From contig CALYQD010000004.1 in the NCBI GenBank assembly GCA_945280365.1, positions 8,571 through 72,570 on the forward strand: a stretch of 64,000 nucleotides of DNA. Reading direction: 5' to 3'. The notes under the pieces are model-generated. The model saw only the letters and a program-made list of their open reading frames with translations, made no database searches and was not told where the DNA came from. The position numbers were made by a program, and so were the translations under genes. Shown here one piece after another: positions 40,900-62,949 of this stretch (positions are counted from its first letter, which is position 1; each line of letters starts with the position of its first letter). The stretch comes from an uncultured Apibacter sp. (GTDB lineage: Bacteria; Bacteroidota; Bacteroidia; Flavobacteriales; Weeksellaceae).

Positions 40900-40973
40900 T
40901 CCTCCTTAGCTCAGTCGGTTAGAGCATCTGACTGTTAATCAGAGGGTCGCTGGTTCGAGCCCAGCAGGAGGAG
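40900..40973 (+). tRNA. tRNA-Asn (anticodon GTT)
   Basis: Cloverleaf read by eye: acceptor TCCTCCT/AGGAGGA, D arm GCTC-AGTCGGTTA-GAGC, anticodon arm TCTGA-CTGTTAA-TCAGA, T arm GCTGG-TTCGAGC-CCAGC, discriminator G. CCA is not encoded. Confidence 0.95.
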
Positions 40974-40983
40974 CTAAAATTCA

Positions 40984-41017
40984 AAAGGTTACAAACTTAA
41001 TAAGTTGTAACCTTTTT
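40984..41017 (+). terminator. hairpin terminator after tRNA-Asn
   Basis: AAAGGTTACAAACTTA / TAAGTTGTAACCTTT stem (one bulge) followed by a T-run. Confidence 0.6.
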
Positions 41018-41019
41018 CG

Positions 41020-41041
41020 TTTGTCAAAAATTTGTCAAAAA
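41020..41041. repeat. perfect tandem direct repeat, 2 x 11 bp (TTTGTCAAAAA)
   Basis: Read directly. A degenerate version (TTTGACAAAATTTGCC) follows the decayed tRNA copy at about 50030-50046. Confidence 0.9.
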
Positions 41042-41178: not shown

Positions 41179-41580
41179 TTATTTGTTTAACAATTTCTCT
41201 ATCAACTCATTCTTTTCATTTATCATTCTCTCATATAATTCCTGCTTTTCTTTATGTAATTCTTCTTTTTCGCTGTAAAGTTGCAGAATCTTATCAATGG
41301 GATTGAAAGTACATTTATAATGAAATGTATCAATAGTATTTGCAATAAAGTTCAGAGCTCCCTCATCATTAAAGTTCTCTATAGCTTCTACTGGTAACTT
41401 TAGAATTTTAGCTACCTTTTCCAAAGTATCTTTTTCTTCTTTACTTTCTAATTTAGATACAGCTGCCTGAGTAATGTTTAATTCCACTGCCAATGCATCT
41501 TGTTTTACTCCCAGCATTTCTCTCAGTCTTTTTATATTCCTTCCGTGATGTGCTTTTTTTGATGCTGTATCTGTATTCAT
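41179..41580 (-). CDS. XRE-family HTH transcriptional regulator with C-terminal coiled coil
   Basis: 133 aa with HTH_3-like NIKRLREMLGVKQDALAVELNITQAAVSKLE and a heptad-rich tail. Confidence 0.75.
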   Translation of the reverse strand: MNTDTASKKAHHGRNIKRLREMLGVKQDALAVELNITQAAVSKLESKEEKDTLEKVAKILKLPVEAIENFNDEGALNFIANTIDTFHYKCTFNPIDKILQLYSEKEELHKEKQELYERMINEKNELIEKLLNK

Positions 41581-42600: not shown

Positions 42601-42760
42601 GGATATTGTTTATAATCCTCCTTTAATACTTTGGTAAAATAGCGCTTTTTAAATCTTTTATTCGCCCCTTATTGGAAATCATCAGATAACCCTTCAAAAT
42701 CGAGATAATTTTTCCAGATTTCTCCAGGAAAGTCTTTTAGAGATAAAAAAGTAGTTTCAT
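42601..42760 (-). pseudogene. truncated, frameshifted 5' fragment of a NUMOD4/HNH endonuclease gene (paralogue of 50083..51390)
   Basis: About 160 bp aligns to 51214-51390 (for example TTGGAAATCATCAGATAAC(C)CTTCAAAATCG.GA.AAT.TTTCCAGATTTCTCC). It has an extra C, an early stop and a small deletion. Its ATG (42758-42760) lies 1 nt after the helicase stop codon. Confidence 0.75.
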
Positions 42761-42761
42761 A

Positions 42762-44885
42762 CTATTTTATCACTAATTTAATTGATTTTAAAAATTTTAT
42801 AGTGCTTTCTAAATCATAATACTTTTGTTTTAACAAACTAATTTGGTATTTTTTAGGTAGTAATATACCCCATTTAGAAAAATCAAGAATGGTTGGGTTT
42901 TTCTCTAATAATTTTGATAAATGGTTGTCTACGTATACTATAGAATTTAGGAGTGTATCTGTAAAATTGTCCCAAACAATATTTGATGTAGAAAATTCAA
43001 AAAAACTATCATTATCAGTCATTATATTTTGTATATCCATAATAGTTAATAATAACTGTATAGTTCTGTTTATCCTGGTTCCTGTAAAAGTATATAATTG
43101 GGCTTTATTTTCTTTTAAAAACAAAGGTCTTTCTTCAGATGGTTTTAGTATATTAAATGGTGAGAATTTTTGTCGAAGTTTATTGATTTCTTCAGAGCTG
43201 GGTTGATCTAAAAATAAATATTCTTCTTCAGAAATAAGGATTTCCAACATTTTTTCTCTTATTCTAGGGTGCACCAAACCTCCACTTCCAAAGAATAAAG
43301 GATTTTTTCCATCTTTAGCAGGACAAACTTCTATTTTATGAGATTTGAAATCAATCAATTTTATTTTCCAAATTTTGGCAGCCAATAAAATATTTTCATC
43401 TTCTCTTATCTGAGGAGAAAAAGGTATTTCTCCTATTGTATTACCTGAGTTTGTGACCTTATAGTGTTCTTCTGTTTTGAATACACTGTAGAAATCACGG
43501 CTATTTACGAATTTTTCCCCTTCAATACCAATAATAATTTCTTTGTCAATCTTTTCTAATATATCATTGCTAATTAAATAATCTATTATTTCATTAATTT
43601 CCTCCTTAGATATATGAATGAATGTAAAATTATTTTCTATTTTCTTTGTCAATTCAATTTCATTAACGCCAGAATATTCCTTGACTATGGATAAGATCTG
43701 GTGAAGCATTATATCAAAAGGTTTTTCTATAAATAAAGGAGGTTCTATAAATTCTTCCTTATATAATAACCAGGATGCTAGTGATTGTAATAAACTCCAT
43801 TTATTAGTTGAATAGAGATATAATTTACTTTTAATTCCTTCTTTTCTTCCGCTTCTTCCGACACGCTGGATCAAAGAAGCTATACTATGTGTAGCATCTA
43901 CCTGAATTACTTTATCCACGTTACCTATGTCAATACCTAATTCAAGAGTGGAGGTGCAAGCAATTGTAAAATTTTCTTTTTTATTATTTTTGGCAAAAAA
44001 TTCTACATATTCTCTGACATCTTTATTAACAGATGAATGATGAGAAAAATAGTTTTTATGTCCACCTACTCGCTCTGCTATTTTTTTTAATTTAACAGCT
44101 ATTTCTTCAACCTTACCTCTATTATTGGGGAAAATTAATACTTTGTTATCCTTTGTTTCTCTATATATGTTTTTTAATAGTTCCAAAGAATATTCTACGG
44201 TCTCTATTTTAAAATATCTGAAAATGACTTGAATTTCATTAGTAGTTTTATCTATGAGAACTTTAGTTTCATTATCATTACCTACAAATTGTTTAGCTTC
44301 TTCATAATCCCCTATAGTTGCAGATAATCCAATTATTCGAAAGGGAACTGTATTTATTTTTTGTAAACGAGATAGAATAGACTTAAGCTGTATTCCTCTG
44401 TCTGTTCCTATAAAAGAATGAATCTCATCTATTACTACAAACTTCAAATTAGAAAAGAGATATTTAATATTATAGGGATTATTTACAAACATAGCTTCTA
44501 AAGATTCAGGAGTAATTAAAACAATTCCCTTAGGGTCCATTAAAAGGTGCTTTTTTTGTGTTCGGTTTGCCTCTCCATGCCACTTAGTTACAGGCACCTC
44601 TAAATAATGACATAGTTCTTCAATACGATAAAACTGATCATTAATCAGAGCTATTAATGGAGAAATATATAAAACCTGAACTCCTGATTTATTAAAATTA
44701 ACAGATGATAATATAGGAAGAAAAGCAGCTTCAGTTTTTCCAGATGCAGTTTTAGAAACAAGAATATAGTTATGGCTCGTTGTTAAAATACGTGTGATTG
44801 CTGCTGCTTGAATAGCCCGCAATTCTTCCCAGCGTTTATCTCTAATATATTTTCTGATAGGCTCAGATAGCAATTGAATAGGCAT
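42762..44885 (-). CDS. sngC: Lhr-like DExH-box SF2 helicase (Shango SngC-like)
   Basis: 707 aa. Motif I TASGKTEAA, Ia PLIALINDQ, II DEIH, III LSAT, VI QRVGRSGR, with a long C-terminal extension. Its ATG shares one base with the upstream TAA. Confidence 0.7.
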   Translation of the reverse strand: MPIQLLSEPIRKYIRDKRWEELRAIQAAAITRILTTSHNYILVSKTASGKTEAAFLPILSSVNFNKSGVQVLYISPLIALINDQFYRIEELCHYLEVPVTKWHGEANRTQKKHLLMDPKGIVLITPESLEAMFVNNPYNIKYLFSNLKFVVIDEIHSFIGTDRGIQLKSILSRLQKINTVPFRIIGLSATIGDYEEAKQFVGNDNETKVLIDKTTNEIQVIFRYFKIETVEYSLELLKNIYRETKDNKVLIFPNNRGKVEEIAVKLKKIAERVGGHKNYFSHHSSVNKDVREYVEFFAKNNKKENFTIACTSTLELGIDIGNVDKVIQVDATHSIASLIQRVGRSGRKEGIKSKLYLYSTNKWSLLQSLASWLLYKEEFIEPPLFIEKPFDIMLHQILSIVKEYSGVNEIELTKKIENNFTFIHISKEEINEIIDYLISNDILEKIDKEIIIGIEGEKFVNSRDFYSVFKTEEHYKVTNSGNTIGEIPFSPQIREDENILLAAKIWKIKLIDFKSHKIEVCPAKDGKNPLFFGSGGLVHPRIREKMLEILISEEEYLFLDQPSSEEINKLRQKFSPFNILKPSEERPLFLKENKAQLYTFTGTRINRTIQLLLTIMDIQNIMTDNDSFFEFSTSNIVWDNFTDTLLNSIVYVDNHLSKLLEKNPTILDFSKWGILLPKKYQISLLKQKYYDLESTIKFLKSIKLVIK

Positions 44886-46198
44886 TATAATTCTTCAATA
44901 TTATCTAATAAGGTTTCCTCATTTGGACGTTCATCTGAAATTTCAATCTCTCCAAATAATTTAGATTTATCCACTTCTGGGTTCTGACGAAGTATATTAA
45001 GGATATTAAGAAAATCTCTAATAACTTCTCTTGGAGTTAAAAATTCAGAAGCTCCAGGTTTATTGAATATTTCTTCCATAAAAGAGTGGATATCATCATT
45101 AGAAATATCTATGAGAGTTTTATAATTAAAATCAAAAATTTCTTTAAGTTTTTTTAATAAAACGAAGATTTCATTATGATCCAAAGGCATTAATCGGATT
45201 ACGGGTTGAGCAAAGTCTCTTATTTCTAAAGTCTCAAACTTATTAGTTTCCAATCTTGATTTTAATGCATGATAGCTGAACAATCCTCTACGCTCATTTT
45301 CCAAAAATTCTTTAGTTCCTGCATAGTTAAAAAATAAATTAGTTACTTTTCCCTGAAAACAATCATTATAAATAGCTAATATTTTTTCATAGTTTTTTTC
45401 TCTCATGACAGCTGTTGAAATTTTGTACAAATTAATAGCTTCATCCAAGTTAATCATAAATCCACTGTATCCCATGCTAACAAATAATTTACAGAAATTT
45501 TTAAGCATATCATAATAATTCTGATCATTAATTATTTCTCGAACCCCTAAATCTTGACGTGCTTCTGTTTTAGTAGTATATTCACCTTTTAACCATTTTA
45601 AAGCATTCCTTCTAAGTTGTTCTTCATCTTGGATGTATCCTTCATAATATTTTATGATCACTGTTCCAAAATCAAAACCTCCTACTTCGGTAATTCCATT
45701 GATGGTTTTCATTATGTTGTTCCGGATTAAATCAATATAATCCTCATTATGTATTTCACTAACTAATATATTATTTTCTTGAGCTGTTTTTATAATGATC
45801 TGCTCAATCCATTTTTCCATTAAAATAGGCAAGGCACCTCCTTCAGGTTTGGTTTGTATGGCTATATTATCCATTATTGACTTGTATAAAGAAACCGCCT
45901 TTCCATCATTAGAATATAAACGATTTTCAGGTGTAAAATCAGCATTAGCTACAACAAATTTTTGTTTTAATGCAACCGTATTTAATAAATGAAGCATAAA
46001 TGATTTTCCAGAACCAAAATCGCCAATCCAAAACTTAACCAAACTATGTCCATTTTTTACATCTTCTAATGCTGAGACAAAAGCTGTTATTTCTTCAGAA
46101 CGTCCTACTGTTATATGTTGTACTCCTATTTTCGGAACTACTCCGCTTACGAGTGAATTAATAATTGCTGTGGCTTCTTTAGGCTTAATATTTATCAT
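44885..46198 (-). CDS. sngB: P-loop ATPase, DUF2791/BrxD-like (Shango SngB-like)
   Basis: 437 aa. Walker A GDFGSGKS, Walker B FMINLDEA. The N-terminal block VPKIGVQHITVGR..E resembles the DUF2791 family. Confidence 0.65.
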   Translation of the reverse strand: MINIKPKEATAIINSLVSGVVPKIGVQHITVGRSEEITAFVSALEDVKNGHSLVKFWIGDFGSGKSFMLHLLNTVALKQKFVVANADFTPENRLYSNDGKAVSLYKSIMDNIAIQTKPEGGALPILMEKWIEQIIIKTAQENNILVSEIHNEDYIDLIRNNIMKTINGITEVGGFDFGTVIIKYYEGYIQDEEQLRRNALKWLKGEYTTKTEARQDLGVREIINDQNYYDMLKNFCKLFVSMGYSGFMINLDEAINLYKISTAVMREKNYEKILAIYNDCFQGKVTNLFFNYAGTKEFLENERRGLFSYHALKSRLETNKFETLEIRDFAQPVIRLMPLDHNEIFVLLKKLKEIFDFNYKTLIDISNDDIHSFMEEIFNKPGASEFLTPREVIRDFLNILNILRQNPEVDKSKLFGEIEISDERPNEETLLDNIEEL

Positions 46199-48231
46199 TT
46201 TATAGTTATTTTTTGGTAGTAATCTTTTAAAATAGTGTAAAATTCATCTTCTTCTTCAATCAATATATCATCCAGAACTTCATAATAAATTTCATTAATA
46301 CTGTCTATCAAATGATTTTTAAAAATATTGTTGTCTTTTGCATAAATATCAAAGTCTTCAAAAGAAACGCACAAACTATTTTTTGCAAAAAAATTTAAAA
46401 CATCTATTTGAATAGAAGATAAATTTTCACCATTTAAATAAATAGACTTATTTGACTCAATTGTTTTTTTGGAAACTATTTTAATTTCATTAGCATTAAT
46501 GTCTTGTGATTTTGTTGATAAACTTTCACTTTCATCTTGTAAATATTCATTTAATAACTCTACAGTTTCTGAATGTTGTTCTTGTACTTCTTTTATGATT
46601 GATTTATTAAGATTAATTTTTTTACGTCTTGCTTTATAAATGGAAGAAACTGAACTTAAAGCCTCATCTAAATTTCTAGTTTTAATTAATTTTTCTACAA
46701 TAATTTCAAAGTCATGAAACTGTTCATTAGTTTTGAAAAGATTTTTTTGTATTGTTTTAGTTAAAGGTTTATTGTTGAAAGTCGAAGATTTTAAATCATA
46801 GTACAAGTAATAAATATATAGTGATAATGCTATTTCTTTATCATACTTAGCTATGAATTTTGATGAATCAAAGAATATATTTTCAATAGAAGGATTATTT
46901 TCATTAAGTTTTCCTAATGAAATAATATCGTTTAAAAACTGCTTTGGATCTCCATTATAATTTTCCGTAATCTTAGAAAATTTTATTTTCCACCGGGTTG
47001 TATTTTGAGTATATAATTTTATATCTGTAGCTTCATCGGGAAGATTGATTATAGATGTTAATTTAAATAAAGTTTGGGTTATGGTAGGAACTATTTTTTC
47101 TTGATATAGATTATTAATTTCAGGCATATGCAGAGAAAAATCAGTATTTAGTTTTCTCTTATGGCCATAAAATTCACGGACAGCATTTTCGCAAAGTTTG
47201 AAAATATTTTGATAAAAATACTTAATTGTATCTTCAAAAGCGTAATTATAATTGTGACTACCTTTTCTGTATTTGTAATACTTTTTTATATAAAGATCTG
47301 CAATTTCTGTAATAAATTGTTCTAAATTTTTTTCTCCTTCAATTTGAGTATCTTGTAAAGTCTCAAATAATGATAAATAAAGTCTGAGTGTTTCAATTAA
47401 ACAAGCTTCTATTTCAGTAAAGGTGTTGGGTGAAAAATATAATTTATTTAATAATTCAACTTCCTTATCATTTAACTTTAGTTTGTTTTTATAGCGGTTT
47501 CCTAAACGCCAGTAATCATACCCATAGTAGTCATAAGGATTGTTTTCAATAATTCTATTTATATTTTCTTCATCGCCTATATTTTCTAATTTTTTAATTA
47601 AAAATGAAATACAGTAAGATTTAGTTCTACTATAATGAAAACCAAGAAGATCCAATTGCTTTTCCAAAACTTGAATGTCCTTGTGTACTTCATATTCATT
47701 TAATAAGTCAAATAACAGAATAAAGGCATAATTCCAATTTCCATATAAATTATTATATTCACCATTGAGGAAATCTGTTTTAAAAGCTTGATAAAATTTT
47801 TTTTGTTCTGGAGTAGCCTCATCTAAATCAGAATAAGAATATATATATTTATGAGGCCAATAGGGAACTCCATATTGATTTATTAATGGTTCATTGTAGG
47901 AAAATAAAACGTGTTTTAAATTATAGTTGTCAGAATTAAAGGTATTTGATTCTGATAAATTAGGACGAAGACTACATGTTTCATTAGAAATATCTTCAAT
48001 AGAATTATTGGATTCGTTCATTATTTTATTTGAAGTGCTATTCTCTTTAATAGTAGAGTTAGAAATAAAATTATTTATAACCTTAATAGACTCCGTATTG
48101 TTATAAGTTGAATCTTTTTCCTGTAGATTTTTTAAGTGATTATTGTAAACATTTTTATTCTTTTGTTTAGATGAATTCTTATTCAAAAAAACAACTAAAA
48201 GTGTTATAAATGTGATAATTAGTAAAATCAT
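46195..48231 (-). CDS. sngA: membrane-anchored TerB-N/TerB-C domain protein (Shango SngA-like)
   Basis: 678 aa. It has an N-terminal TM helix and an Asn/Ser-rich linker. The TerB-N-like motif is VPYWPHKYIYSYSDLDEATPEQKKFYQAF. The TerB-C-like acidic blocks are SETVELLNEYLQDESE and INEIYYEVLDDILIEEEDE. Overlaps sngB by 4 nt (ATGA). Confidence 0.65.
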   Translation of the reverse strand: MILLIITFITLLVVFLNKNSSKQKNKNVYNNHLKNLQEKDSTYNNTESIKVINNFISNSTIKENSTSNKIMNESNNSIEDISNETCSLRPNLSESNTFNSDNYNLKHVLFSYNEPLINQYGVPYWPHKYIYSYSDLDEATPEQKKFYQAFKTDFLNGEYNNLYGNWNYAFILLFDLLNEYEVHKDIQVLEKQLDLLGFHYSRTKSYCISFLIKKLENIGDEENINRIIENNPYDYYGYDYWRLGNRYKNKLKLNDKEVELLNKLYFSPNTFTEIEACLIETLRLYLSLFETLQDTQIEGEKNLEQFITEIADLYIKKYYKYRKGSHNYNYAFEDTIKYFYQNIFKLCENAVREFYGHKRKLNTDFSLHMPEINNLYQEKIVPTITQTLFKLTSIINLPDEATDIKLYTQNTTRWKIKFSKITENYNGDPKQFLNDIISLGKLNENNPSIENIFFDSSKFIAKYDKEIALSLYIYYLYYDLKSSTFNNKPLTKTIQKNLFKTNEQFHDFEIIVEKLIKTRNLDEALSSVSSIYKARRKKINLNKSIIKEVQEQHSETVELLNEYLQDESESLSTKSQDINANEIKIVSKKTIESNKSIYLNGENLSSIQIDVLNFFAKNSLCVSFEDFDIYAKDNNIFKNHLIDSINEIYYEVLDDILIEEEDEFYTILKDYYQKITIK

Positions 48232-48253
48232 GTAGTTATTAGTTCTTATATTT

Positions 48254-48261
48254 CAAAGATA
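48254..48261 (-). promoter_or_regulatory. candidate -7 promoter element for the three-gene operon
   Basis: The minus strand reads TATCTTTG (TAnnTTTG consensus of Bacteroidota), 22 nt upstream of the sngA ATG. No clear -33 TTG. Confidence 0.35.
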
Positions 48262-48436
48262 TAAATTTTTGGTCATTTTTTATCCAGCTATTTTAATGCG
48301 AATAATTTTTTATTATAAAATAACTATATTTTATATAAATTATGATAGTTGTTTGATTTGTGTATATTCTTACTAATTTATTATAATAGGTCTCTATTCA
48401 CAGCTTCTTCAAATAAGATAATTGTACGGGAGTTAA

Positions 48437-48834
48437 CTATTCGGTTAGGCACTCGGAAGAGGTATTCATCCAACCATTTGTATTTAGATCAAAGAACCAT
48501 TTTTCAAACTCATAAATTGTTTTAGATGAAGGCTGAGGTTTTTCATAACTAGGAAGATTAAACCCGAACCTCTCAAAGATCCTTTTGTATTTTATTGCAG
48601 TAAATATGATATACTGGGCCTGGGCATAAATCATTGGAGGAAGATGGCTTTTTTCTTTTTTTAGATTTGTTCTTTATATCCGGTTCTGGGAAAATTTTGC
48701 TTCCGTATTTTTGATTACTTCAATCAAATCCCTTTCGGGTTTTTCTCTTTTCTGATGAATTGGGCTTTGGAACAGGTGAATTTAGGAGTCCATAATTCCA
48801 GCCACTCTTTTTTCATGACTTCTGCTATTTCCAT
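48437..48834 (-). pseudogene. degraded gene of unknown identity (at least one frameshift and one in-frame stop)
   Basis: The minus strand reads MEIAEVMKKEWLELWTPKF...KGI*, then shifts frame to LIEVIKNTEAKFSQNRI*RTNLKKEKSHLPPMIYAQAQ... The last piece is the 65-aa ORF-track entry. Confidence 0.35.
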
Positions 48835-49247
48835 GTTACTATGTTAATAGGAAAATGAGGATTGTAGGTTATTTTCTGAGGATTGAAAAAACAATAAGAT
48901 TTTCTATTAATAGATTTAATATTAATAATTATTCAATTGAAGTTTGATGGTAATCCAATAAATGAATTAAAAAAAGAGAGTTAAAAAATTATTTTAGATA
49001 ATTTAAATTTGGCTGATAATTATCATAATAAATTTATTTCGTATTTGTCAACAGTATGTTAATAAATTAGTTAAATATTAATACTGTGTAATTTAGCAAA
49101 GCTAATACGTAAAAACAAGTGCCACATTATTATATCAAGAATTATTTAATGCTGAAAAGCACTAATATAAGAGATATTTTTGTTTTTATATAAAATAAAA
49201 AACTTAAAATATTTTTTATATTTGAATGTAATTAAATAACTATAAAA

Positions 49248-49911: not shown

Positions 49912-49983
49912 TCTTCGGTAGTTATTTCAAGAGCAACTTTTCTGTGAATCAGAAGATCGCCAGTTTAATCCCAGCTGAAGGAG
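49912..49983 (+). pseudogene. degenerate tRNA-Asn-like copy (pseudo-tRNA), with a decayed copy of the downstream terminator to about 50046
   Basis: Colinear with 40900-41036: AGAGCA, CTGTGAATCAGA vs CTGTTAATCAGA, GATCGCCAGTTTAATCCCAGCTGAAGGAGCT vs GGTCGCTGGTTCGAGCCCAGCAGGAGGAGCT, then AAAAGGTTA...TTGTAACCTTTTT. The D, T and acceptor stems no longer pair. Confidence 0.7.
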
Positions 49984-50082
49984 CTGAAAATAAAAAGGTT
50001 ATAGATATAAAAATTTGTAACCTTTTTTATTTGACAAAATTTGCCTATATAAACTATGGTTATTAAAAAAAAATCTAACTTT

Positions 50083-51390
50083 TTATATGATTTTTTCTAC
50101 ATATTTCCATATATACCCCCCACAGGTTTTACTCCTTCCATGTACAGCATCATTTATACTGCTACGAGATACGCCGGTTGATTTACCTGCTTCAATAACA
50201 GAAGGATAAGTAGCTATATGATTTCCAGAGAGGTCATATTGATAAACTACTTTAATTTTCTTTTTAGGGGGAGTTATTTTTGTTAGCTTATTTCCTTCCA
50301 TCCAAATAAAACCTCTTAAATATTGAGGCTTAGAACTGAGTATTTTTCCTAAGGTCATCTCAGGTATTCCTGTACTTTTGGAAGCTTTTGATATGCTGGG
50401 GTAAACCATTATAAGATTCCCTTCTTTATCAAACTGGCTTACTATTTTAGCGCTAATTGAGGGAGGTACGGGATCTACTTTCTGAGGCTCATAACCTTTT
50501 TTCCAAATCAAGCCACCAGCAGTTTGAGATCTTCCTTGTATACACTGGCGAATACAGCCTCTATTTATTTTAGTTTGCTGCTCAGCTTCCCATATATTAT
50601 TGTATCCGGCTAAATAATTACCCTCTTTATCATAACAACTAAGCGGTTGAGAAGATATGCTTGGTGTTACAGCAATAATTTCGGAAATATCATTTTCATA
50701 TCTCCAAATATAATTTCCTGCATATTTTTGCTTTCCAAGAATACATTTTCTAATAGCCGCTTCGTGAATTCCAGTTTGTTTATAAGCTTCCCTTATGCTT
50801 GGATAAGTGAGTAGGTAGTTACCTTGCAGGTCATATTGCTTAACTTTGATTTTAGTCTTACTTTTTTCCTGTAATTTGTTTCTTCTTTCTTTGGGCCAAA
50901 AATTTCTTATACTCGCAAATATTTCAGGTACATTAGTCCTTCCTTGTTTTGCTGTAATCCGGTTTAATTCTGCACTATCCGCCTTATAAAGGTTTTCTAT
51001 CTTATTATTAAAATTATCCCAATCTTTATGAAGGATTAGATCTTGTTTGGTTATTTTGCTGCAAAAAGCTTCATATACCTTTCTGGAAACATAAAATGAA
51101 TAAGTAATTTTTTCAATGGTTATTTTAGTTATTAAGGAATAAAAATATTTTTTGAGTATTTTATTGTAAAGTGGTTTGGGATATTGTTTTCGAATTCGTT
51201 CGGGGCGTTCATAGGATATTGTTTTTAATCCTCCTTTGGTACCTTGGTAAATAGTTCTTTTTAAATTTTTTATGCGTCCCATATTGGAAATCATCAGATA
51301 ACCTTCAAAATCGGGACAATCTTTCCAGATTTCTCCGGGAATATCTTTGAGTGATAAATTTTGATATGGATATAAAGCAGTTTTTTTCAA
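50083..51390 (-). CDS. homing-endonuclease-like protein: NUMOD4 motif + HNH_3-like domain + four tandem NUMOD1/IENR1-type HTH modules
   Basis: 435 aa with a TTG start in the track. NUMOD4-like GEIWKDCPDFEGYLMISNMGRIKNL. HNH-like LILHKDWDNFNNKIENL. It has four ~60-aa repeats of pattern Q(Y/F)D..GN....YPSI.EA.K.TG.....I...(G/H).......G(Y/F)IW. Confidence 0.7.
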   Translation of the reverse strand: MKKTALYPYQNLSLKDIPGEIWKDCPDFEGYLMISNMGRIKNLKRTIYQGTKGGLKTISYERPERIRKQYPKPLYNKILKKYFYSLITKITIEKITYSFYVSRKVYEAFCSKITKQDLILHKDWDNFNNKIENLYKADSAELNRITAKQGRTNVPEIFASIRNFWPKERRNKLQEKSKTKIKVKQYDLQGNYLLTYPSIREAYKQTGIHEAAIRKCILGKQKYAGNYIWRYENDISEIIAVTPSISSQPLSCYDKEGNYLAGYNNIWEAEQQTKINRGCIRQCIQGRSQTAGGLIWKKGYEPQKVDPVPPSISAKIVSQFDKEGNLIMVYPSISKASKSTGIPEMTLGKILSSKPQYLRGFIWMEGNKLTKITPPKKKIKVVYQYDLSGNHIATYPSVIEAGKSTGVSRSSINDAVHGRSKTCGGYIWKYVEKII

Positions 51391-51612: not shown

Positions 51613-53502
51613 ATGGAAAAAATAGATAAATCTGAAGTTCCTTTTACCTTTTCTAGTCCAGATGTAGTAAAAGAGAAAATTGCAAACAAATTCAATCGAT
51701 ACGGAAAAACCTCAATCACTTATGTTAGTGTTAAGATTGCCGGAGAGGATTATTTTACTGAAACCAACATTGCTAAATTAGAGATTAAACAAAAAGTAGG
51801 AGATCATCATAGTTTTGAGATTTGGTGTGATCCGGGAGAATTTAATGAAGATAATGCTTATTTATTTGAAAACTCCAGAGCTCATTTAGGTAAGCGGATT
51901 ACTTTCCAATTTCACAGGTTTGGAACTGTACAATCAATTTTTACAGGATTGATCACCCAAGTATCCACTCAAAAGCAAGACGGAGTAAAAAAAGTTATTT
52001 TGCGTGGCAATTCTCCCTCTATACTTATGGAAAACGGATTACATACAAGAAGTTTTGAAAATAAAACTTTGGAAGAGATTATAAAAGAGGTAGCTTATCC
52101 ATATGCAAAGAATTTAATTGACTTTAAAATCAATCCGAATTTTAAAGAAAAAATTCCTTATATCGTTCAATATAATGAGAGTGATTATCAATTCATAAAG
52201 CGATTAGCCTCTCGTTTTGGAGAGTATTATTATTATAACGGAGAACAACTGGTTTTTTCTGCTTGGGGAGGGAAAATAACAGAATTAGCTGAAGAGGAAG
52301 ATATTTTTAATTTCGAATTAAAAATGGAAGTGCACCCTCAGAAATTTTCTTATACAGCGTATGATGCTAAACAATCATCTGATTATAAGGTAGATTCAGA
52401 AAGTCAGAGGCTACAACAATCAGAGAATCCTTTTCAGCAATATGCCATTAATGCATCAGAAGGACTTTTTAATGTTTCTCCCACCGCTCATTTTGATAAA
52501 AGCTTATTGATAAATCAGCAGTTAGATATTGAAAGGGCTGTTCTTGCAGAAAAACGTAAAAGACAAAATTTAGTTTATATAGAGGCAACTACTAATGAAC
52601 CTAGCTTACGCCTAGGCGATATAGGTAAAGTTTCAGCCTGGATACCTAAACATAAAATTTTTAAATCCGGAAAAATTCCGATTGAAAGTTATAAGATAAA
52701 TGAAATTACTCATTGTTTTATTGAGGGAAAAGGATATACTAATACATTTATAGGAGTACCTAAAGATTTAATAACACCTCCGGATTATGACGGAAGCAAT
52801 ACCCCGGTAGCAGATATTCAACATGCAATTGTAACAGACAATAAAGATCCAAAAAAGATGGGACGTGTACGTCTTCAGTTTGTCTGGCAAAAGGCTGAAA
52901 ACAGCCAGACACCTTGGGTACAAGTAATACAACCTCATGCAGGTAGAGATAAAGGAACATATATTAATCCGGAAATAGGAGAAACTGTATTGGTAGCTTT
53001 TCAGGGAGGAAATGCAGAAGCTCCTATTGTATTGGGAACGGCTTATAATGGAGGAGAGATAGCTGCTTATTACACTGAAGGAAATGATATTAAGGTAATA
53101 CAAACAAGAAGTGGTGCCAAAATTATTTTCAATGATGCTGAAGGACAAGGCTCTATTCTAATTGAAGACCCAAGCGGTAACCGTATCTTCTTGGATGGAA
53201 AAGGCAATATTAGGACAGAAGTACCGGAGACTTTCTTTTTAGATGCTAAAAATGTAGTGGTTACGGCTTCCCAGAATATAAGTATGAGTGCAGGGGAAAA
53301 TATTTCTATTATGGCAGCAGAAGACTATAATCTGGCAGCAAGCAATATATATGAAAGTGCCGGAGAAGGTAGAGTATCTAATGCTAATGATTTTATAGAA
53401 ATTTCTAAAAAAAGTACTTATACAAGTAATGAAGATAAAATAAACTTGGAAAGTGCTTTGGAAGTTAAATCCAATAGTGCACAACAAACCAGTTTACATT
53501 AA
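51613..53502 (+). CDS. vgrG: type VI secretion spike protein VgrG (gp27-like + gp5 OB-fold + short beta-helix)
   Basis: 629 aa. It has a phage late-control-D/gp27-like region (QYNESDYQFIKRLASRFGEYYYY) and a gp5 OB-fold block (AIVTDNKDPKKMGRVRLQFVWQ...GETVLVAFQGGNAEAPIVLG). C-terminal repetitive beta-strand segments follow. Confidence 0.9.
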   Translation: MEKIDKSEVPFTFSSPDVVKEKIANKFNRYGKTSITYVSVKIAGEDYFTETNIAKLEIKQKVGDHHSFEIWCDPGEFNEDNAYLFENSRAHLGKRITFQFHRFGTVQSIFTGLITQVSTQKQDGVKKVILRGNSPSILMENGLHTRSFENKTLEEIIKEVAYPYAKNLIDFKINPNFKEKIPYIVQYNESDYQFIKRLASRFGEYYYYNGEQLVFSAWGGKITELAEEEDIFNFELKMEVHPQKFSYTAYDAKQSSDYKVDSESQRLQQSENPFQQYAINASEGLFNVSPTAHFDKSLLINQQLDIERAVLAEKRKRQNLVYIEATTNEPSLRLGDIGKVSAWIPKHKIFKSGKIPIESYKINEITHCFIEGKGYTNTFIGVPKDLITPPDYDGSNTPVADIQHAIVTDNKDPKKMGRVRLQFVWQKAENSQTPWVQVIQPHAGRDKGTYINPEIGETVLVAFQGGNAEAPIVLGTAYNGGEIAAYYTEGNDIKVIQTRSGAKIIFNDAEGQGSILIEDPSGNRIFLDGKGNIRTEVPETFFLDAKNVVVTASQNISMSAGENISIMAAEDYNLAASNIYESAGEGRVSNANDFIEISKKSTYTSNEDKINLESALEVKSNSAQQTSLH

Positions 53503-53513
53503 ACTATAGTAAT

Positions 53514-54776
53514 ATGGGAGTTATAGAAGGCGGAAAAATAATACGAACTATAGGAGGGGAAAGTATAAAAATTGCAAAAAAGTCCATTACTTTAACTGCT
53601 ACAGAGGGTAATCTTACTTTTAATGCAGCTACTAAAGTAGAAATGGTGGGCAAACAAAATGGAGTAAAATATCTAAATGATTATAAACCTCCAGAGGAAA
53701 TACCTACTACTTTAAGAGTTACTAAAGTTATAGGGCCTGATATTATTAAAGGCGGAGGTGTCTATGATTATCAAGCAGTAGAATTTAATAGAAAAAATTT
53801 TTCATTAGTAGAGCTGAACAAGCTTATATGGAATGTAAAATATGATGATTCCGCAGAATTTTTAGGATTTGAAGATGAAAAAAATAAAAATTCATATATT
53901 ATTTCAGATAAGAAGATTGGAGTAAAAAGAATTCATATTTTATCTGAAAATGTAATAGGAAAGAAAAAAATCAAAATATATCCCTTTTTTAATTCTCCTT
54001 CAGAAAATGTTTGTGTTATATCTCATTTGGAACTTCCATCAGGAGTTTTTGTCTGGGCAGAGACCAAGGGTACTGGGCATGTATTTCTAACTGTTCATAA
54101 GGAGAATAACATATATTTATATACTTATGGAAGATATGATGATGCTTATATGATTTCGCTAGGCACCATGGGGGAAGGAGTTTTAATCAGATATACTAAC
54201 AAGTTAGCCATAGAATACATGAAAAAAGAATTATATAGGCTTGATTGCAAAGTATATCAGATTAAAGATGTTAAAGAGGATGATTTGATTGAGATATTTG
54301 ATAAGATATGGAATAGTTCAACAGAAAAACCAGACAATAAATCAACATCAGATTCAGTGAAAGAATATGGTAGGGTTATAGATGATTATGATTTAACTGG
54401 TAATAATTGTACTACTAAAACATGTGATGCCTTGAAGAAAGCAGGAACAAATATTTTTAATTTTGATGTCTATTTATTCAATAAAAAAATGTATTCCTAT
54501 AAAGAATATTTTACTATTCCCAGCTCACTGAATGATTTCCTAAACGAACAAAAGGAAACTAATTCCGATATTGTAGTTTCTACAGAGATCATGAAATCAA
54601 CTTATGAAAATATACAATCTATAGAAACATTAGATAAAACAGGATCTTCGGGTGAAACTTCAGGAAGTTCAGGGGATGCATCAGGAAGTTCAGCAAATTC
54701 TTCCAACAGTGAAACGATCAGCAGCGGATCAAGCCCTGCCTCAAGTGGAGGAATTTATGGTTCATCTTCCAATTAA
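53514..54776 (+). CDS. putative T6SS effector: VgrG-tip-like N-terminal strands, permuted papain-fold (His-before-Cys) hydrolase-like domain, Ser/Gly-rich tail
   Basis: 420 aa, starting 11 nt after vgrG. The N-terminus ESIKIAKKSITLTATEGNLTFNAATKVEMVG continues the VgrG C-terminal repeat style. TGHVFLTVHKENNIYLYTYGRY plus YDLTGNNCTTKTCDALKKAG resemble the PPPDE/LRAT-type H...NC motifs. The tail is SSGETSGSSGDASGSS... Confidence 0.4.
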   Translation: MGVIEGGKIIRTIGGESIKIAKKSITLTATEGNLTFNAATKVEMVGKQNGVKYLNDYKPPEEIPTTLRVTKVIGPDIIKGGGVYDYQAVEFNRKNFSLVELNKLIWNVKYDDSAEFLGFEDEKNKNSYIISDKKIGVKRIHILSENVIGKKKIKIYPFFNSPSENVCVISHLELPSGVFVWAETKGTGHVFLTVHKENNIYLYTYGRYDDAYMISLGTMGEGVLIRYTNKLAIEYMKKELYRLDCKVYQIKDVKEDDLIEIFDKIWNSSTEKPDNKSTSDSVKEYGRVIDDYDLTGNNCTTKTCDALKKAGTNIFNFDVYLFNKKMYSYKEYFTIPSSLNDFLNEQKETNSDIVVSTEIMKSTYENIQSIETLDKTGSSGETSGSSGDASGSSANSSNSETISSGSSPASSGGIYGSSSN

Positions 54777-54788
54777 ACAATTATTAAT

Positions 54789-55025
54789 ATGAAAAAAAAT
54801 AATTTTATGAAAATAATATTAGGACTTTTTTTTGTAATTGTAGTTATAGTAGAAATAGCACTGATTTTAAATGCATTTCTCACAGTAAAATATCAAATAG
54901 AAGAAGCTGAAAACATGACTCAGGTATTAAATAAAATATATAGTATTCTAAATAATGGAGTATATATAATTATTTTTGACTTGATTTATTTATTAGTCCT
55001 TCATATTCTCTATTTTAAAAAGTAA
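54789..55025 (+). CDS. small two-TM membrane protein (immunity candidate)
   Basis: 78 aa with two hydrophobic helices, immediately downstream of the putative effector. Confidence 0.4.
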   Translation: MKKNNFMKIILGLFFVIVVIVEIALILNAFLTVKYQIEEAENMTQVLNKIYSILNNGVYIIIFDLIYLLVLHILYFKK

Positions 55026-55027
55026 CA

Positions 55028-55642
55028 GTGCAAAATAAGAGTTGGGAACATACCCGTATATATAAAACAGAGCATAACTTAGAAGTAAAGGAACGCTCAC
55101 AAACCAAACAAAGCAGAGTTTCTTTTGACATGGGAATCAATTGCAATACTAAGGATGAAAGCATACGTAAAGTATTCACCCGGGAAAATTACCTGATTAA
55201 TTCTAAAATACCTAAAGAACATCATATCCGTTTGTTATATGAATTGGAACAAGCAGTTTACCCATTGGAAATAGAAGTAAATACGTATGAAAATTTTGAA
55301 AGAATCCCGGGCCATGGCCTGTGGTTTTCTACCTGGCAAAAAAAAGCAGATGCAATTTTACAGGAGAAATACAGTCGTGAGTTTGTCGAAAGCCTGAAAA
55401 ACCAGGTACAGGGAAATTTGGAGACCGAAGAAAAACTTAAACAAAAAATACAGGAAAAAGCCTTCTGGAAATTATACTTTTTTGGGATGCAAAATGCTCA
55501 GAATGATAATACCTTACGTTGGAATATCTTAAAAGTTGGTACCCTTTATTTTACAGGACATGTACAGACAAAAATTGAAGAAAATAAATGGGTATCTGTT
55601 TATCGGGAGAATCAGGTAAAACCGGAAGAAAGTTTAGCTCAG
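55028..55642 (+). repeat. dispersed direct repeat, copy 1 (paralogous 5' ~615 bp shared with 56483-57097)
   Basis: Long identical nucleotide runs, for example ATTAATTCTAAAATACCTAAAGAACATCATATCCGTTTGTTATATGAATTGGAACA in both copies. Confidence 0.85.
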
Positions 55643-55948
55643 AAATTAGCGGATCATTTAAATGCCATAGTTTATGCATTTTTAAGACGAAGTAATTATA
55701 CATCTACCTGGCTTGACGGTGGCGACCAATCATACACTAAAAATTACATAACCATTGAAGATGAAGATATAAGCAATCCGCTAAATCCCATGGATTGGTA
55801 TAGAAAGTTAAACAGAAAAGGATGGGACCAAGCTTTGTGGAATACTTCCGGGGCATATATGGCGCCAACAAGCGGCAAAACACCAGGGGGCCTTCTTGAA
55901 GAAGGTATGTTTATTTTTGAAAAGGGCAAAAAAGCAAGAAAAAAATAA
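55028..55948 (+). CDS. unknown-family protein, paralogue A (conserved N-terminal ~205 aa, unique C-terminal ~100 aa)
   Basis: 306 aa. The GTG start is supported by alignment to the paralogue B start (MQNKSWEH.RIYK vs MQIKPWDN.RIYK). The two are colinear up to ...KPEES and then unrelated. Confidence 0.6.
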   Translation: MQNKSWEHTRIYKTEHNLEVKERSQTKQSRVSFDMGINCNTKDESIRKVFTRENYLINSKIPKEHHIRLLYELEQAVYPLEIEVNTYENFERIPGHGLWFSTWQKKADAILQEKYSREFVESLKNQVQGNLETEEKLKQKIQEKAFWKLYFFGMQNAQNDNTLRWNILKVGTLYFTGHVQTKIEENKWVSVYRENQVKPEESLAQKLADHLNAIVYAFLRRSNYTSTWLDGGDQSYTKNYITIEDEDISNPLNPMDWYRKLNRKGWDQALWNTSGAYMAPTSGKTPGGLLEEGMFIFEKGKKARKK

Positions 55949-55954
55949 AATAAT

Positions 55955-56362
55955 ATGAAATACTGTAAATCACTAATTTTTGCTTTTATTATATATGTTT
56001 TAGCAAGTTTTGCGACTTATTTTTCCATGCATGTATATTCAACTGATATTTCATCATCATGTTTTGAATGCTCATATAAGAAAGATATTTTTTTGTCTTC
56101 CATTCATATAAGTGTAATTTTTCTTTTATTGATTCTACTAAAAAATATCTTGAAAAAAAAATGGAGTATTTCAATATTCTTCACGATTATATTTGCAATA
56201 CTTGTTTTCTTTAACAACTATAATATTTTTGTAGATAGGGTTTCATCGTGGAGTAGTTACACCTTTACCGAAGAACTTCTAAGTGTCCTGTCAAATTCTT
56301 ATTTGTACTTGGGGATCAGCACTATATTAGTATTTGTTTTATTAAAGTTATTTAAATTTTAA
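55955..56362 (+). CDS. polytopic small membrane protein (immunity candidate for paralogue A)
   Basis: 135 aa with about 4 predicted TM helices. It starts 6 nt after paralogue A. Confidence 0.45.
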   Translation: MKYCKSLIFAFIIYVLASFATYFSMHVYSTDISSSCFECSYKKDIFLSSIHISVIFLLLILLKNILKKKWSISIFFTIIFAILVFFNNYNIFVDRVSSWSSYTFTEELLSVLSNSYLYLGISTILVFVLLKLFKF

Positions 56363-56482
56363 AATAAAATCCTTTTAACAAGTACACAGCCTATAATCGG
56401 TTTAAGTTTAATAAAATTCATTGATAAAAAAAAATAATCAATGGTTATAATAATTTAGATACAGAAAACTAAGACGGAAATA

Positions 56483-57097
56483 ATGCAAATTAAACCTTGG
56501 GATAATATCCGTATATATAAAGTAGAACATACTTTGAAAGTAAAAGAAGGCCTACAGGTTAAGGAGAGTAGGATAACTTTTGACATGGGAATCAGTTGCA
56601 ATATAAAGAATGGTAGCATACGAAAGTTATTTACCCGAGAGAACTGCCTGATTAATTCTAAAATACCTAAAGAACATCATATCCGTTTGTTATATGAATT
56701 GGAACAGGCTATTTATCCGCTGGAAATAGAGGTAAACCGGTATGGGAATTATGAAAAAATACCAGGTTATGCTTTATGGTTTTCCAACTGGCAAAATAAA
56801 GCAGAAAAAATATTGAAAGAGAACTACCGAGGAGAATTTGCCGAAAGCTTGAAAAACCAGTTACAGGAAAATTTGGAGACCGAAGAAAAACTCAAACAAA
56901 AAATACAGGAAGAAGCCTTCTGGAGATTGTACTTTTTTGGGATGCAAAATGCCCAGAATGATAAGACCTTGCGTTGGAACGTCTTAAAAGCAGGTACTCT
57001 TTATTTTACGGGAGATGTACAGACAAGCATTGAAGAAAATAAACTGATATCTGTTTACGGGGGAAAATCGGAGAAACCGGAAGAAAGTTTCACTGAA
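56483..57097 (+). repeat. dispersed direct repeat, copy 2
   Basis: See copy 1. Confidence 0.85.
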
Positions 57098-57352
57098 AAC
57101 CTTAACATCCTCTTACGAAAGAAAAAAAATTCTAAACATTACCTAATGCCGGGTAATATAGAGTCAAGCTGTATGGTAAAATCCGTTTGGGAGAAAGACA
57201 TCGGAAAACTGCTTTATAAGGCATCAGAAATTGAAGTAAATTCAGAAGATAAAAACTATCTTTATTCAGAAAAAATAGAGATGAAATATCAAGGAATAAG
57301 TATAAGAAAAGAAACTAACCCTAAATCTTTTATTGTTTCAAGAAACAAATAA
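56483..57352 (+). CDS. unknown-family protein, paralogue B (same N-terminal domain, different C-terminus)
   Basis: 289 aa. See paralogue A. The C-terminal ~85 aa are unrelated to A. Confidence 0.6.
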   Translation: MQIKPWDNIRIYKVEHTLKVKEGLQVKESRITFDMGISCNIKNGSIRKLFTRENCLINSKIPKEHHIRLLYELEQAIYPLEIEVNRYGNYEKIPGYALWFSNWQNKAEKILKENYRGEFAESLKNQLQENLETEEKLKQKIQEEAFWRLYFFGMQNAQNDKTLRWNVLKAGTLYFTGDVQTSIEENKLISVYGGKSEKPEESFTENLNILLRKKKNSKHYLMPGNIESSCMVKSVWEKDIGKLLYKASEIEVNSEDKNYLYSEKIEMKYQGISIRKETNPKSFIVSRNK

Positions 57353-57379
57353 AGAAAAGAGAAAGAAAATTAAAAAGAT

Positions 57380-61693: not shown

Positions 61694-62949
61694 TTATGAA
61701 AAAAAGAATAATATTTTTCAGTTTATTCATATTATTTTTTTCCTGTAGAGGAGAAGAAAATAAGAAAGAAGAAAAAAAAGAAAAGCCTATTATAGAAATT
61801 GCACAAAATACACAAATGGATAACATTGGTTTACAAAATACGCAAAAGGATAGCATTAATTTACAAAAAATAGAAGAACATATAGAACTACAAAAAAGAG
61901 TATTTGTAGAAGACCATATTCCTGACAATGAATATATAGCCACACAAGAGGATTTAGATTTACAACTACTTTTATTAGAAAAATCATTAGAGAATAGCGG
62001 TTATAAATTCCCGGATTATTCCTTATTTAAAGAGAGGATAAAGTATGTATTTGGAATAGATATAGACAAAAGTGAAGAAAATATTGTTACATTATATGCA
62101 GAAGAACCAGTCTATGACAAGGGAAAAGCATATACGGATGAAGAAATAAAACATATACTATTAAAAGAAACGAATCTAACTTTTGATCAATTTAAATATA
62201 GTTTTTCAAGTTATGATTGGAATTTATTTATAGATAAACAAAGGAAAATAATAACTCCTATGGTATTTCTGAATGATTTAATAAAAATTAAGGGGAAAGA
62301 TAAAAAAGAGTATAGTATACAACAAAATTTAAAAGTATTATCCTTAAATAAATATTTAATATATAATGACAAAGCTAGTTTAAATTATTTATTACCTAGA
62401 GAAGCATATTTATCAAGGTCATTATTATTAAATTTTAATTATGATAAGGAAGATAAAATTAATGAAAATGTAATGGATAGTTTATACACTTCCTATAACC
62501 ATAATGAACCTGTAAGAGAATCAGAATTTAGATCATTGATTTTTGTAATGAAAGATGAGCCCGGTCAAGACCGAAGCCGTTTATACCTAAGAGAAGGAAT
62601 ATTAAAAACCATTGAAAATATAACTAATGAAAATGAGGGTAAATATGCTATAACAATAAAACATGCGGTTGCAAGCATAGTAGTAAAAAAAAGAGATGGT
62701 AAAAATATAGGCTGGACAAATGAAGAACTATACAAAATAGTAGCTTATTCTGCTAATTATATAGATCCATTGTATTGGAAGTATCATAAATCAGAAACAG
62801 TAGTATGGGGAAATGGCGATATATTAGGGGTCTATGATTCTTTATTACCAGAAAAAGAATGGGAAGCAATGTTAAAACAATTTAAGGAAAATAATTATTA
62901 TAATTTACCTAATTTAAAAGGCTTAGTAAAAGAAATAATGAATTGGTAG
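61690..62949 (+). CDS. lipoprotein, immunity candidate for the cell-wall hydrolase effector
   Basis: 419 aa with an ATGA overlap with the effector stop. The second M gives MKKRIIFFSLFILFFSC (lipobox). I recognise no family. Confidence 0.5.
   Translation: MIMKKRIIFFSLFILFFSCRGEENKKEEKKEKPIIEIAQNTQMDNIGLQNTQKDSINLQKIEEHIELQKRVFVEDHIPDNEYIATQEDLDLQLLLLEKSLENSGYKFPDYSLFKERIKYVFGIDIDKSEENIVTLYAEEPVYDKGKAYTDEEIKHILLKETNLTFDQFKYSFSSYDWNLFIDKQRKIITPMVFLNDLIKIKGKDKKEYSIQQNLKVLSLNKYLIYNDKASLNYLLPREAYLSRSLLLNFNYDKEDKINENVMDSLYTSYNHNEPVRESEFRSLIFVMKDEPGQDRSRLYLREGILKTIENITNENEGKYAITIKHAVASIVVKKRDGKNIGWTNEELYKIVAYSANYIDPLYWKYHKSETVVWGNGDILGVYDSLLPEKEWEAMLKQFKENNYYNLPNLKGLVKEIMNW
61804..61863 (+). repeat. 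in-frame tandem repeat, 2 x 30 bp, inside the lipoprotein gene
   Basis: CAAAATACACAAATGGATAACATTGGTTTA / CAAAATACGCAAAAGGATAGCATTAATTTA, encoding QNTQMDNIGL / QNTQKDSINL. Confidence 0.8.

Follow-up and report, generated by a model that had tools for sequence, protein, structure and literature searches.

The DNA analyzed here is a 64,000-nt stretch of contig CALYQD010000004.1 from an uncultured Apibacter sp. (hereafter the window, meaning the full stretch, whose coordinates are used throughout), and its subject is an operon of three genes on the minus strand. The operon very probably encodes a Shango-type anti-phage system, sngA-sngB-sngC, of the kind described in Escherichia coli and in Pseudomonas aeruginosa PA14 (Millman et al. 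2022; Johnson et al. 2023). The three genes are:

46195..48231, minus strand: sngA, 678 aa; PADLOC SngA 1.6e-37, Pfam TerB_C 6.7e-20
44885..46198, minus strand: sngB, 437 aa; PADLOC SngB 1.2e-164, Pfam PF10923 7.2e-145
42762..44885, minus strand: sngC, 707 aa; PADLOC SngC 4.8e-209, Pfam DEAD 1.9e-35 and Helicase_C 6.5e-17

A first-pass annotation made from the letters alone had placed three open reading frames (ORFs) with coupled junctions at these positions, and this is confirmed. The minus strand reads AAAATGATA at 46198-46195, where the sngA TGA overlaps the sngB ATG (ATGA), and TTATAATGCCT around 44885, where the last A of the sngB TAA is also the first A of the sngC ATG (TAATG). The best match of each protein in PADLOC-DB is the corresponding Shango model (SngA for gene 1, SngB for gene 2 and SngC for gene 3), and with the genes adjacent and co-oriented the assignment is made by gene models as well as by synteny. 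A scan of one genome per species gave 80 loci with a window-type SngA; the sngA-sngB-sngC order with tight spacing is kept in 75 of them and the remaining five run into contig ends, which amounts to 75/75 testable loci. Since three long ORFs combine strong family matches with a synteny that is conserved elsewhere, the operon is far beyond what chance would produce. The earlier reading of the trio as Shango-type is thereby upheld, and the motifs that it quoted are all present in the translations (MILLIITFITLLVVFLN and VPYWPHKYIYSYSDLDEATPEQKKFYQAF in gene 1, GDFGSGKS and MINLDEA in gene 2, TASGKTEAA, DEIH, SAT and QRVGRSGR in gene 3). Its description of the genome as Flavobacteriia-like also agrees with the position of Apibacter in the Weeksellaceae, Flavobacteriales. 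The Apibacter locus is a further copy of a published system, recognised already by standard defence-finder models, and a specialist whose existing tools find the locus will not be surprised by its identification.

Concerning transcription, a pattern search with the Bacteroidota -7 consensus TAnnTTTG gives one candidate ahead of the operon:

48254..48261, minus strand: candidate promoter TATCTTTG, 22 nt upstream of the sngA ATG

The same search found no comparable -7 site just upstream of sngB or sngC, and we infer that TATCTTTG may be a single promoter for the whole operon. Because the window holds 123 sites of this pattern where 105 +/- 9 are expected, a single -7-like site is weak evidence, and a scan for sigma-70 promoters and terminators performed no better than chance (48 against 42.7 expected from shuffles).

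SngB belongs to Pfam family PF10923 (BrxC_BrxD, formerly DUF2791) with an E-value of 7.2e-145, in line with the DUF2791/BrxD-like context and the Walker motifs first reported for gene 2. The PADLOC SngB model scores 546.6 bits (1.2e-164), against 147.3 bits (1.8e-43) for BrxD, and the NCBIfam BrxD model reaches 149.9 bits (1.1e-43), below its cutoff of 350. The motifs are:

46001..46024, minus strand: Walker A, GDFGSGKS, SngB residues 59-66
45437..45457, minus strand: Walker B, MINLDEA, SngB residues 248-254

Residues G59..G62-S-G-K65 and D252-E253 are invariant with respect to the canonical Klebsiella and Pseudosulfitobacter SngB. These canonical comparators, here and below, are copies on a Klebsiella IncF plasmid and a Pseudosulfitobacter plasmid and not the tested PA14 or E. 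coli proteins. A sequence search of the PDB returned nothing for SngB or for SngA. From its family membership and its Walker motifs, both of them intact, SngB is predicted to be an AAA+ ATPase of the ORC/Cdc6 type.

SngC matches Pfam DEAD (1.9e-35) and Helicase_C (6.5e-17), with a sub-threshold match to WH_Lhr, and its closest PDB entries by sequence are the Lhr structures 5v9x (3.3e-29) and 7lhl (1.7e-28), so the description of gene 3 as an Lhr-like helicase stands. The PADLOC SngC model gives 694.7 bits (4.8e-209), compared with 441.3 bits (1.5e-132) for BrxHI over residues 17-701, and the C-terminal region of SngC is common to BrxHI. The helicase motifs, all encoded on the minus strand, are:

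SngC residues 46-54, minus strand: motif I, TASGKTEAA
SngC residues 153-156, minus strand: motif II, DEIH
SngC residues 188-190, minus strand: motif III, SAT
SngC residues 340-347, minus strand: motif VI, QRVGRSGR

Within them T46-A-x-G-K-T51, D153-E-x-H156, S188-A-T190 and Q340-R-x-G-R-S-G-R347 are invariant with respect to canonical SngC. SngC is predicted to be an Lhr/Ski2-like superfamily 2 (SF2) helicase with all its helicase motifs intact. A 105-aa AT-rich ORF lies antisense inside sngC (42889-43206, plus strand) and is taken as spurious.

Compared with canonical Shango, the operon has the same three genes in identical order with tight or overlapping junctions, and over their full length SngB is 39% and SngC 31% identical to its Klebsiella counterpart, with the catalytic motifs kept. 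A second relative is the type-2 BREX (bacteriophage exclusion; Pgl) system, in which SngB has a homologue in BrxD, likewise an ORC/Cdc6-type AAA+ ATPase, and SngC in BrxHI, a Ski2/Lhr-like helicase with a winged helix-turn-helix and an Lhr-like C-terminal domain (PMC12839542). The gene pair is tightly linked in both systems, but here no neighbouring ORF has the size or family of a PglX methyltransferase, PglZ, BrxC or PglW, and the partner is a membrane-anchored TerB_C protein. As the BrxD and BrxHI matches are far weaker than the Sng matches, SngB and SngC are relatives, not members, of the BREX pair. With the Lhr and Lhr-core repair helicases (5v9x, 7lhl) SngC shares the SF2 motifs and the weak WH_Lhr match; it differs from them in its score on NCBIfam Lhr-type models, only 235.7 bits for a cutoff of 850, and in the setting of its gene, which belongs with sngA and sngB to a mobile operon that varies between strains.

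The architecture of SngA was examined in an AlphaFold2 (AF2) model, which is a prediction with a mean predicted local distance difference test (pLDDT) score of 73.9 and a predicted template modelling (pTM) score of 0.46 (pTM 0.54 for the canonical SngA model). It comprises:

SngA residues 2-18 (48178..48228, minus strand): transmembrane (TM) helix, from the AF2 model and hydropathy
SngA residues 19-110 (47902..48177, minus strand): disordered Asn/Ser-rich linker, from the AF2 model and composition
SngA residues about 121-567 (about 133-567 in the AF2 model), minus strand: all-alpha core
SngA residues 566-595, minus strand: acidic disordered stretch, from the AF2 model
SngA residues 606-675, minus strand: C-terminal H-E-H-H-E-E-H domain (H, helix; E, strand), from the AF2 model

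The N-terminal TM helix and the Asn/Ser-rich linker (Asn plus Ser make up 40% of the linker, against 16% in the remaining protein) are thus present as the annotation had described them. SngA is predicted to be tethered to the cytoplasmic membrane via this one N-terminal helix and, because Lys/Asn-rich residues come after it, most of the protein is expected in the cytoplasm. The further suggestion that anchor and linker are a lineage-specific variant has to be abandoned: canonical SngA has the same layout, with a TM helix (residues 2-19), a disordered linker of about 70 residues, an acidic disordered stretch and the small C-terminal H-E-H-H-E-E-H fold in its AF2 model. By a simple and crude hydropathy threshold, at least one hydrophobic segment precedes the core in 108/120 canonical SngA proteins and in 111/120 close relatives of the window SngA, and among 149 sequences representing 50%-identity clusters 97 have one. 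Of the whole layout, it is the Asn/Ser-rich linker composition alone that is local.

The N-termini of window-type SngA proteins vary: some have a single helix and some a TM2 domain, and in others SH3_3 and a TM helix come after a signal-like segment, an arrangement that suggests an extracytoplasmic extension in some SngA lineages. In addition, a module of about 100 aa ("VPYW…NYAFILLFDLL") occurs in one to three copies across SngA relatives, with three in P0004 and two in P0120; modular N-termini are seen in P0004, P0120, P0101, P0116 and P0105.

The sole PADLOC match of SngA is the SngA model PDLC03958 (1.6e-37, 128.3 bits), which aligns residues 121-675 with model positions 101-523 of 528; canonical SngA scores about 350 bits, compared with 128 for the window protein. 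Gene 1 had initially been read as a TerB-N/TerB-C protein, of which the C-terminal half holds: Pfam TerB_C (PF15615) matches residues 527-675 (46207..46653) at 6.7e-20 and 72.2 bits, well over the cutoff of 26.3, and it is matched in 39/39 aligned clade members (about 1e-25 in canonical SngA). The TerB-N block was a fair resemblance by eye and not a demonstrated domain, since neither Pfam TerB_N (PF13208) nor TerB (PF05099) gives any match at E<=1 in the window SngA or in the 39 clade members. Canonical SngA differs here, with TerB_N (1.6e-46, 1.5e-67), TerB (2e-07, 3.3e-09), a beta-hairpin region and an alpha/beta insert, and all 120 of the closest relatives of Klebsiella SngA carry at least part of this domain set, nearly all full-length ones having the three domains.

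Profile and structure comparisons agree with the Pfam result. Alignment by hhalign of the window clade with the canonical SngA profile, both full-length and region by region and with 60 column shuffles as the null, leaves TerB_C as the sole aligning region (E 8e-4). Against canonical TerB_N the E-values are 0.11-0.25, and the VPYW module scores 15.4, equalled by 7/60 column shuffles; the central core against canonical TerB scores 18.3 over 29 columns (E 0.033) and is equalled by 1/60 shuffles. A hidden Markov model (HMM) built from canonical TerB_N finds the window clade with weak matches only (E 0.04-0.2), which fall exactly on three short motifs collinear with canonical TerB_N (S-I-x-D-[IV]-T, YWP, and NYAFILLFDLL versus GYVFIYLYGLE), and these motifs stay short of statistical support. 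A Foldseek search of the window SngA model against the PDB gave generic tetratricopeptide repeat (TPR)/solenoid matches only, at E>0.1, and none with a TerB-like fold; the model of canonical SngA, taken as positive control, retrieved the TerB-like structures 2h5n (probability 0.99, TM-score 0.67) and 2ou3. The AF2 model of window SngA also lacks the beta-hairpin portion of TerB_N. The TerB domain is absent from window SngA, and TerB_N is at best a degenerate remnant. A Pfam "HD" match in 15/39 clade members (best E 0.035) was treated as noise, nothing else supporting it.

Window SngA belongs to a widespread clade, centred on Bacteroidota, that keeps anchor, linker and TerB_C and in which TerB_N and TerB are undetectable; its all-alpha core has invariant polar residues of its own. 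The 80 loci are mostly from Bacteroidota, together with some metagenome-assembled genomes (MAGs) labelled Ignavibacteria, Chlorobaculum and Acidobacteria and a few with unexpected labels; many of the contigs are metagenomic, and the labels Limnohabitans, Nitrosocosmicus and Rickettsiales are probably binning errors. An exhaustive search gave 612 representative proteins (50%-identity clusters) related to the SngA core, and the closest named SngA is that of A. raozihei, at 64% identity. The clade is not described separately in the papers searched.

Across the related loci (L007-L086), identity to the window proteins is 74-88% for SngB, 36-55% for SngA and 58-67% for SngC, with SngC values above 67% in truncated alignments only. 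The conservation of SngB across MAGs of several phyla would reflect either an unusually strong constraint or a recent horizontal spread. In one MAG labelled Limnohabitans (L007, 7556-9591) about 2 kb separate sngB from sngC, compared with 0-20 nt in the other loci, and this gap may be an insertion sequence.

The operon lies on a genomic island of about 9 kb between a tRNA-Asn gene and a degenerate copy of part of it, a low-GC segment in which the GC content is 0.25-0.29 against 0.30-0.33 around it. The features of the island other than the operon are:

40900..40974, plus strand: tRNA-Asn (GTT), called by ARAGORN and by Rfam (tRNA, 70.6 bits); integration target and left island border
40932..41032, plus strand: left direct repeat, attL-like, 101 nt, imperfect, covering the tRNA-Asn 3' half and a downstream hairpin
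41179..41580, minus strand: XRE-type helix-turn-helix (HTH) gene, intact, 133 aa; Pfam HTH_3 2.1e-07, PADLOC HTH_VI 6.4e-09
42601..42747, minus strand: NUMOD4-gene fragment, a pseudogene copying the 5' end of a NUMOD4 gene, directly after sngC
48410..48888, minus strand: Rep_1 remnant, a frameshifted 3' stump lacking about the first 126 codons
49248..49721, plus strand: lipoprotein-like ORF, intact, 157 aa, N-terminus …LTQLSSC…, no family match
49942..50042, plus strand: right repeat copy, attR-like, degenerate, 77% identity, not a functional tRNA

No tRNA is called by ARAGORN or Rfam at the right repeat copy, and the tRNA-Asn is the sole Rfam match. A conspecific contig (L092) matches the window at 99.4% identity along 10.8 kb of flanking DNA, with the divergence setting in exactly at 41034; it lacks Shango and carries type VI secretion cargo in its place, and given a conspecific without it, the Shango segment is accessory. 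A second contig (L100) has the operon at 94% DNA identity on a related, intact element: there the operon is preceded by a tyrosine integrase, a gene for a 408-aa protein and a Rep_1 gene, and the contig starts with a perfect 30-nt tRNA-Asn fragment that has the same anticodon-loop start as the degenerate repeat copy of the window. Rep_1 proteins are initiators of rolling-circle replication. The DNA common to both extends from 42750 to 48888 of the window only (blastn, L100 3170-9344 corresponding to window 48888-42750). A tblastn search with the L100 Rep_1 recovers residues 127-176 and 163-286 in two frames of the window (56% and 66%), and the integrase that is present in the L100 element is absent from the window island. 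Taken together, the repeats, the absence from L092 and the integrase and Rep_1 of L100 show that the window island is a decayed tRNA-targeting integrative element. The operon had been called the only intact unit of a decayed island; the decay is borne out by the Rep_1 stump and the missing integrase, but the operon is not the sole intact unit, given that the HTH gene and the lipoprotein-like ORF are intact too. Many metagenome assemblies contain the locus in almost the same form, and one of them (L003) is 100% identical over the operon and both compared island flanks.

The operon itself has not shared in the decay. With respect to L100, the ratio of non-synonymous to synonymous substitution rates (dN/dS) is 0.29 for sngA, 0.08 for sngB and 0.21 for sngC, at a dS of 0.11-0.14. 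Ten contigs that share the decayed-island context carry the 5470-nt operon with no indels and at most 14 mismatches, whereas in the flanking island DNA of the same contigs 1-8 gaps open and divergence reaches 2.7%. Among 31 polymorphic sites in the operon 16 are synonymous and 15 non-synonymous, none giving a stop codon, where about three non-synonymous changes per synonymous one would be the neutral expectation by a rough estimate that was not computed. The dN/dS of 0.08-0.29 together with a coding sequence free of indels in ten contigs indicates, as far as sequence comparison can tell, that the operon is under purifying selection, and since the integrase and Rep_1 were lost while the operon stayed indel-free and constrained, it would be the host that selects for it. 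The proposal of ongoing selection on the operon is thus supported by the dN/dS values, the lack of indels and the 16:15 polymorphisms, the numbers being modest.

Two further observations concern variation within the operon. A stop codon in sngB of one contig (L093, 430-1743) was considered as a case of pseudogenisation and rejected; it is one of nine clustered A/T changes in 100 nt, the contig has a coverage of 7.8x, and the stop is probably an assembly artefact. In sngC, codons 431-707 (42762-43595) carry eight non-synonymous to three synonymous changes and codons 1-430 one to three, small numbers that hint that selection on the C-terminal part of SngC, which putatively binds DNA, is either relaxed or diversifying.

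The best explanation for the whole is a Shango operon carried on an eroded tRNA-Asn-targeting integrative element, with the defence genes under purifying selection, a reading to which we give a probability of roughly 0.8. Its mode of action can be approached only by comparison with what is published. In E. coli and P. aeruginosa, the protection given by Shango is 10-100 fold in efficiency of plating (EOP) (10.1101/2022.05.11.491447; PMC10250203), an involvement in "membrane surveillance" has been put forward (10.1101/2022.05.11.491447), and late in 2025 it was still considered unclear how TerB-containing defence proteins act (10.1101/2025.09.30.679545). For type-2 BREX, the proposal is that BrxD loads BrxHI or activates it (PMC12839542). 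By analogy, SngA could keep the complex on the inner side of the membrane, the site of phage DNA entry, sense an infection cue and license SngB; SngB, helicase-loader-like and resembling BrxD in its relation to BrxHI, might then load or activate SngC on the invading DNA, where ATP-driven translocation of SngC would disrupt phage replication or transcription. This chain from sensing through loading to interference is a doubtful proposal.

The "membrane surveillance" idea has parallels in BnzA of Bunzi and DinB of Dionysus, which are likewise membrane-linked Ter-family proteins with that proposed role (10.1101/2022.05.11.491447; 10.1101/2025.09.30.679545). They differ from the present system in having a true TerB domain and other partners, in Dionysus a pore-forming toxin, whereas window SngA is TerB-less and is combined with an ATPase and a helicase.

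Several points weigh against the Shango reading, its selection component or the mechanism attached to it. The dN/dS values against L100 average over both lineages and alone are no proof of selection after the decay, and the polymorphism data within the population comprise few sites. TerB (PF05099), by which a review describes Shango (PMC10952713), is undetectable in window SngA; the validated Shango systems are those of E. coli and P. aeruginosa (PMC10250203; 10.1101/2022.05.11.491447), and SngA homologues from E. coli have the canonical set of TerB_N, TerB and TerB_C. Pfam, PADLOC and the AF2 model of SngA show no nuclease or toxin domain in SngA, SngB or SngC, so that the operon has no effector nuclease to account for how infection is stopped; the mechanistic chain is analogy only. 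The promoter assignment, finally, rests on one 8-nt motif.

The main mechanistic rival to this chain is abortive infection, which leaves the Shango identity unchanged: SngB and SngC would act indiscriminately, by depleting ATP or by unwinding phage and host DNA alike, and the infected cell would cease to grow or would die. In its favour, the operon encodes no self/non-self marker such as a methyltransferase and no nuclease, and the combination of a modest EOP reduction with strong protection in liquid culture reported for Shango (PMC10250203) fits either mode. However, the sequences show no toxin or pore, no cell-death data were found in published work, and the homologous BrxD-BrxHI pair sits in BREX, which is non-abortive (PMC12839542). 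We consider it unlikely.

Considerably less probable is a role in the replication, transfer or maintenance of the mobile element, or in an Lhr-like repair of host DNA. The operon of L100 does stand directly after the Rep_1 gene of the element, and the nearest solved structures to SngC are those of Lhr repair helicases. Yet the operon remained intact and constrained after Rep_1 and the integrase were lost, the other 80 loci show no Rep_1 linkage and a homologue of the integrase in three cases only, and canonical copies have other defence genes as neighbours, in L098 a phage exclusion gene of the Lit family and in L097 one for a DUF4297 anti-phage-associated protein. Moreover, canonical homologues protect against phages in experiments (PMC10250203).

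It is more improbable still that the operon is a functionally dead relic in which disabling mutations have simply not yet accumulated. The decayed island and the sngB stop codon of L093 would fit such a relic, but that stop is probably an artefact, dN/dS stays at 0.08-0.29, indels are lacking in the ten contigs whose flanks have several, and 16 synonymous to 15 non-synonymous polymorphisms lie well below the rough neutral estimate of about 3:1. Finally, the idea that SngB and SngC are a stray type-2 BREX BrxD-BrxHI pair with an unrelated gene 1, which draws on the PADLOC and NCBIfam matches given above, is already effectively refuted, for the Sng models outscore those of BREX for both proteins, the NCBIfam BrxD score is below cutoff, no ORF of the size of PglX, PglZ, BrxC or PglW adjoins the operon, and gene 1 is coupled to gene 2 by their start/stop overlap and accompanies it in all testable loci.

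The comparison of the clade with canonical Shango is informative, as anchor, linker and TerB_C are universal in SngA and TerB_N and TerB are not, and these universal parts narrow the search for the sensing mechanism. A tentative extension, to which we attach less than even odds, is that the clade constitutes a functionally distinct Shango subtype with a non-TerB sensor, in which anchor, linker and TerB_C form the universal core and TerB is dispensable. If true, this core would couple a membrane-proximal signal to the SngB-SngC motor. The island also constitutes a natural experiment, a carrier element having lost its integrase and replication gene with the defence operon intact, and it documents a defence system with its mobile vehicle in Apibacter, a bee-gut symbiont.

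Concerning the remaining genes in and around the island, the XRE-type HTH protein is 135 aa long in several other assemblies and shows weaker matches to the RmrA and CapH models; by its family it could be a regulator of a defence gene, and it is not adjacent to the Shango promoter. The NUMOD4 fragment after sngC, which copies about the first 150 nt of its source gene, is 85-89% identical to 51214-51358 (direct repeats D2, D3 and D6). Just outside the island, at 50083-51390 on the minus strand, lies an intact gene for a 435-aa protein with NUMOD4 and four NUMOD1 repeats that matches the PADLOC homing-endonuclease model HEase at 5.4e-30, and recombination between two NUMOD genes is a possibility for how the fragment arrived inside the island.

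Downstream of the operon in L100 (9334-10888; also in L101), a gene for a 141-aa hydrophobic protein starts 2 nt after sngC and is followed by an overlapping one for a 379-aa protein with a faint match to Mrr_cat; neither protein has a PADLOC match. They were considered as extra Shango components and rejected, being absent from all 80 other loci, and may be a separate small defence pair that was lost from the window.

Beyond the right border, a type VI secretion cargo cluster occupies 51613-62949 on the plus strand, with a VgrG (Phage_GPD and Phage_base_V, 51613-53502) and several ORFs without family match. A 1437-aa protein encoded at 57380-61693 has an N-terminal DUF4280, a domain that we take to be PAAR-like, and a C-terminal CHAP/Amidase_5 region, the GC content inside the gene being 0.37-0.40; from these domains it is a probable peptidoglycan-hydrolase effector. 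In L092 the type VI secretion cluster is inverted relative to the tRNA-Asn and carries other cargo, including a weak match to Tlde1_dom.

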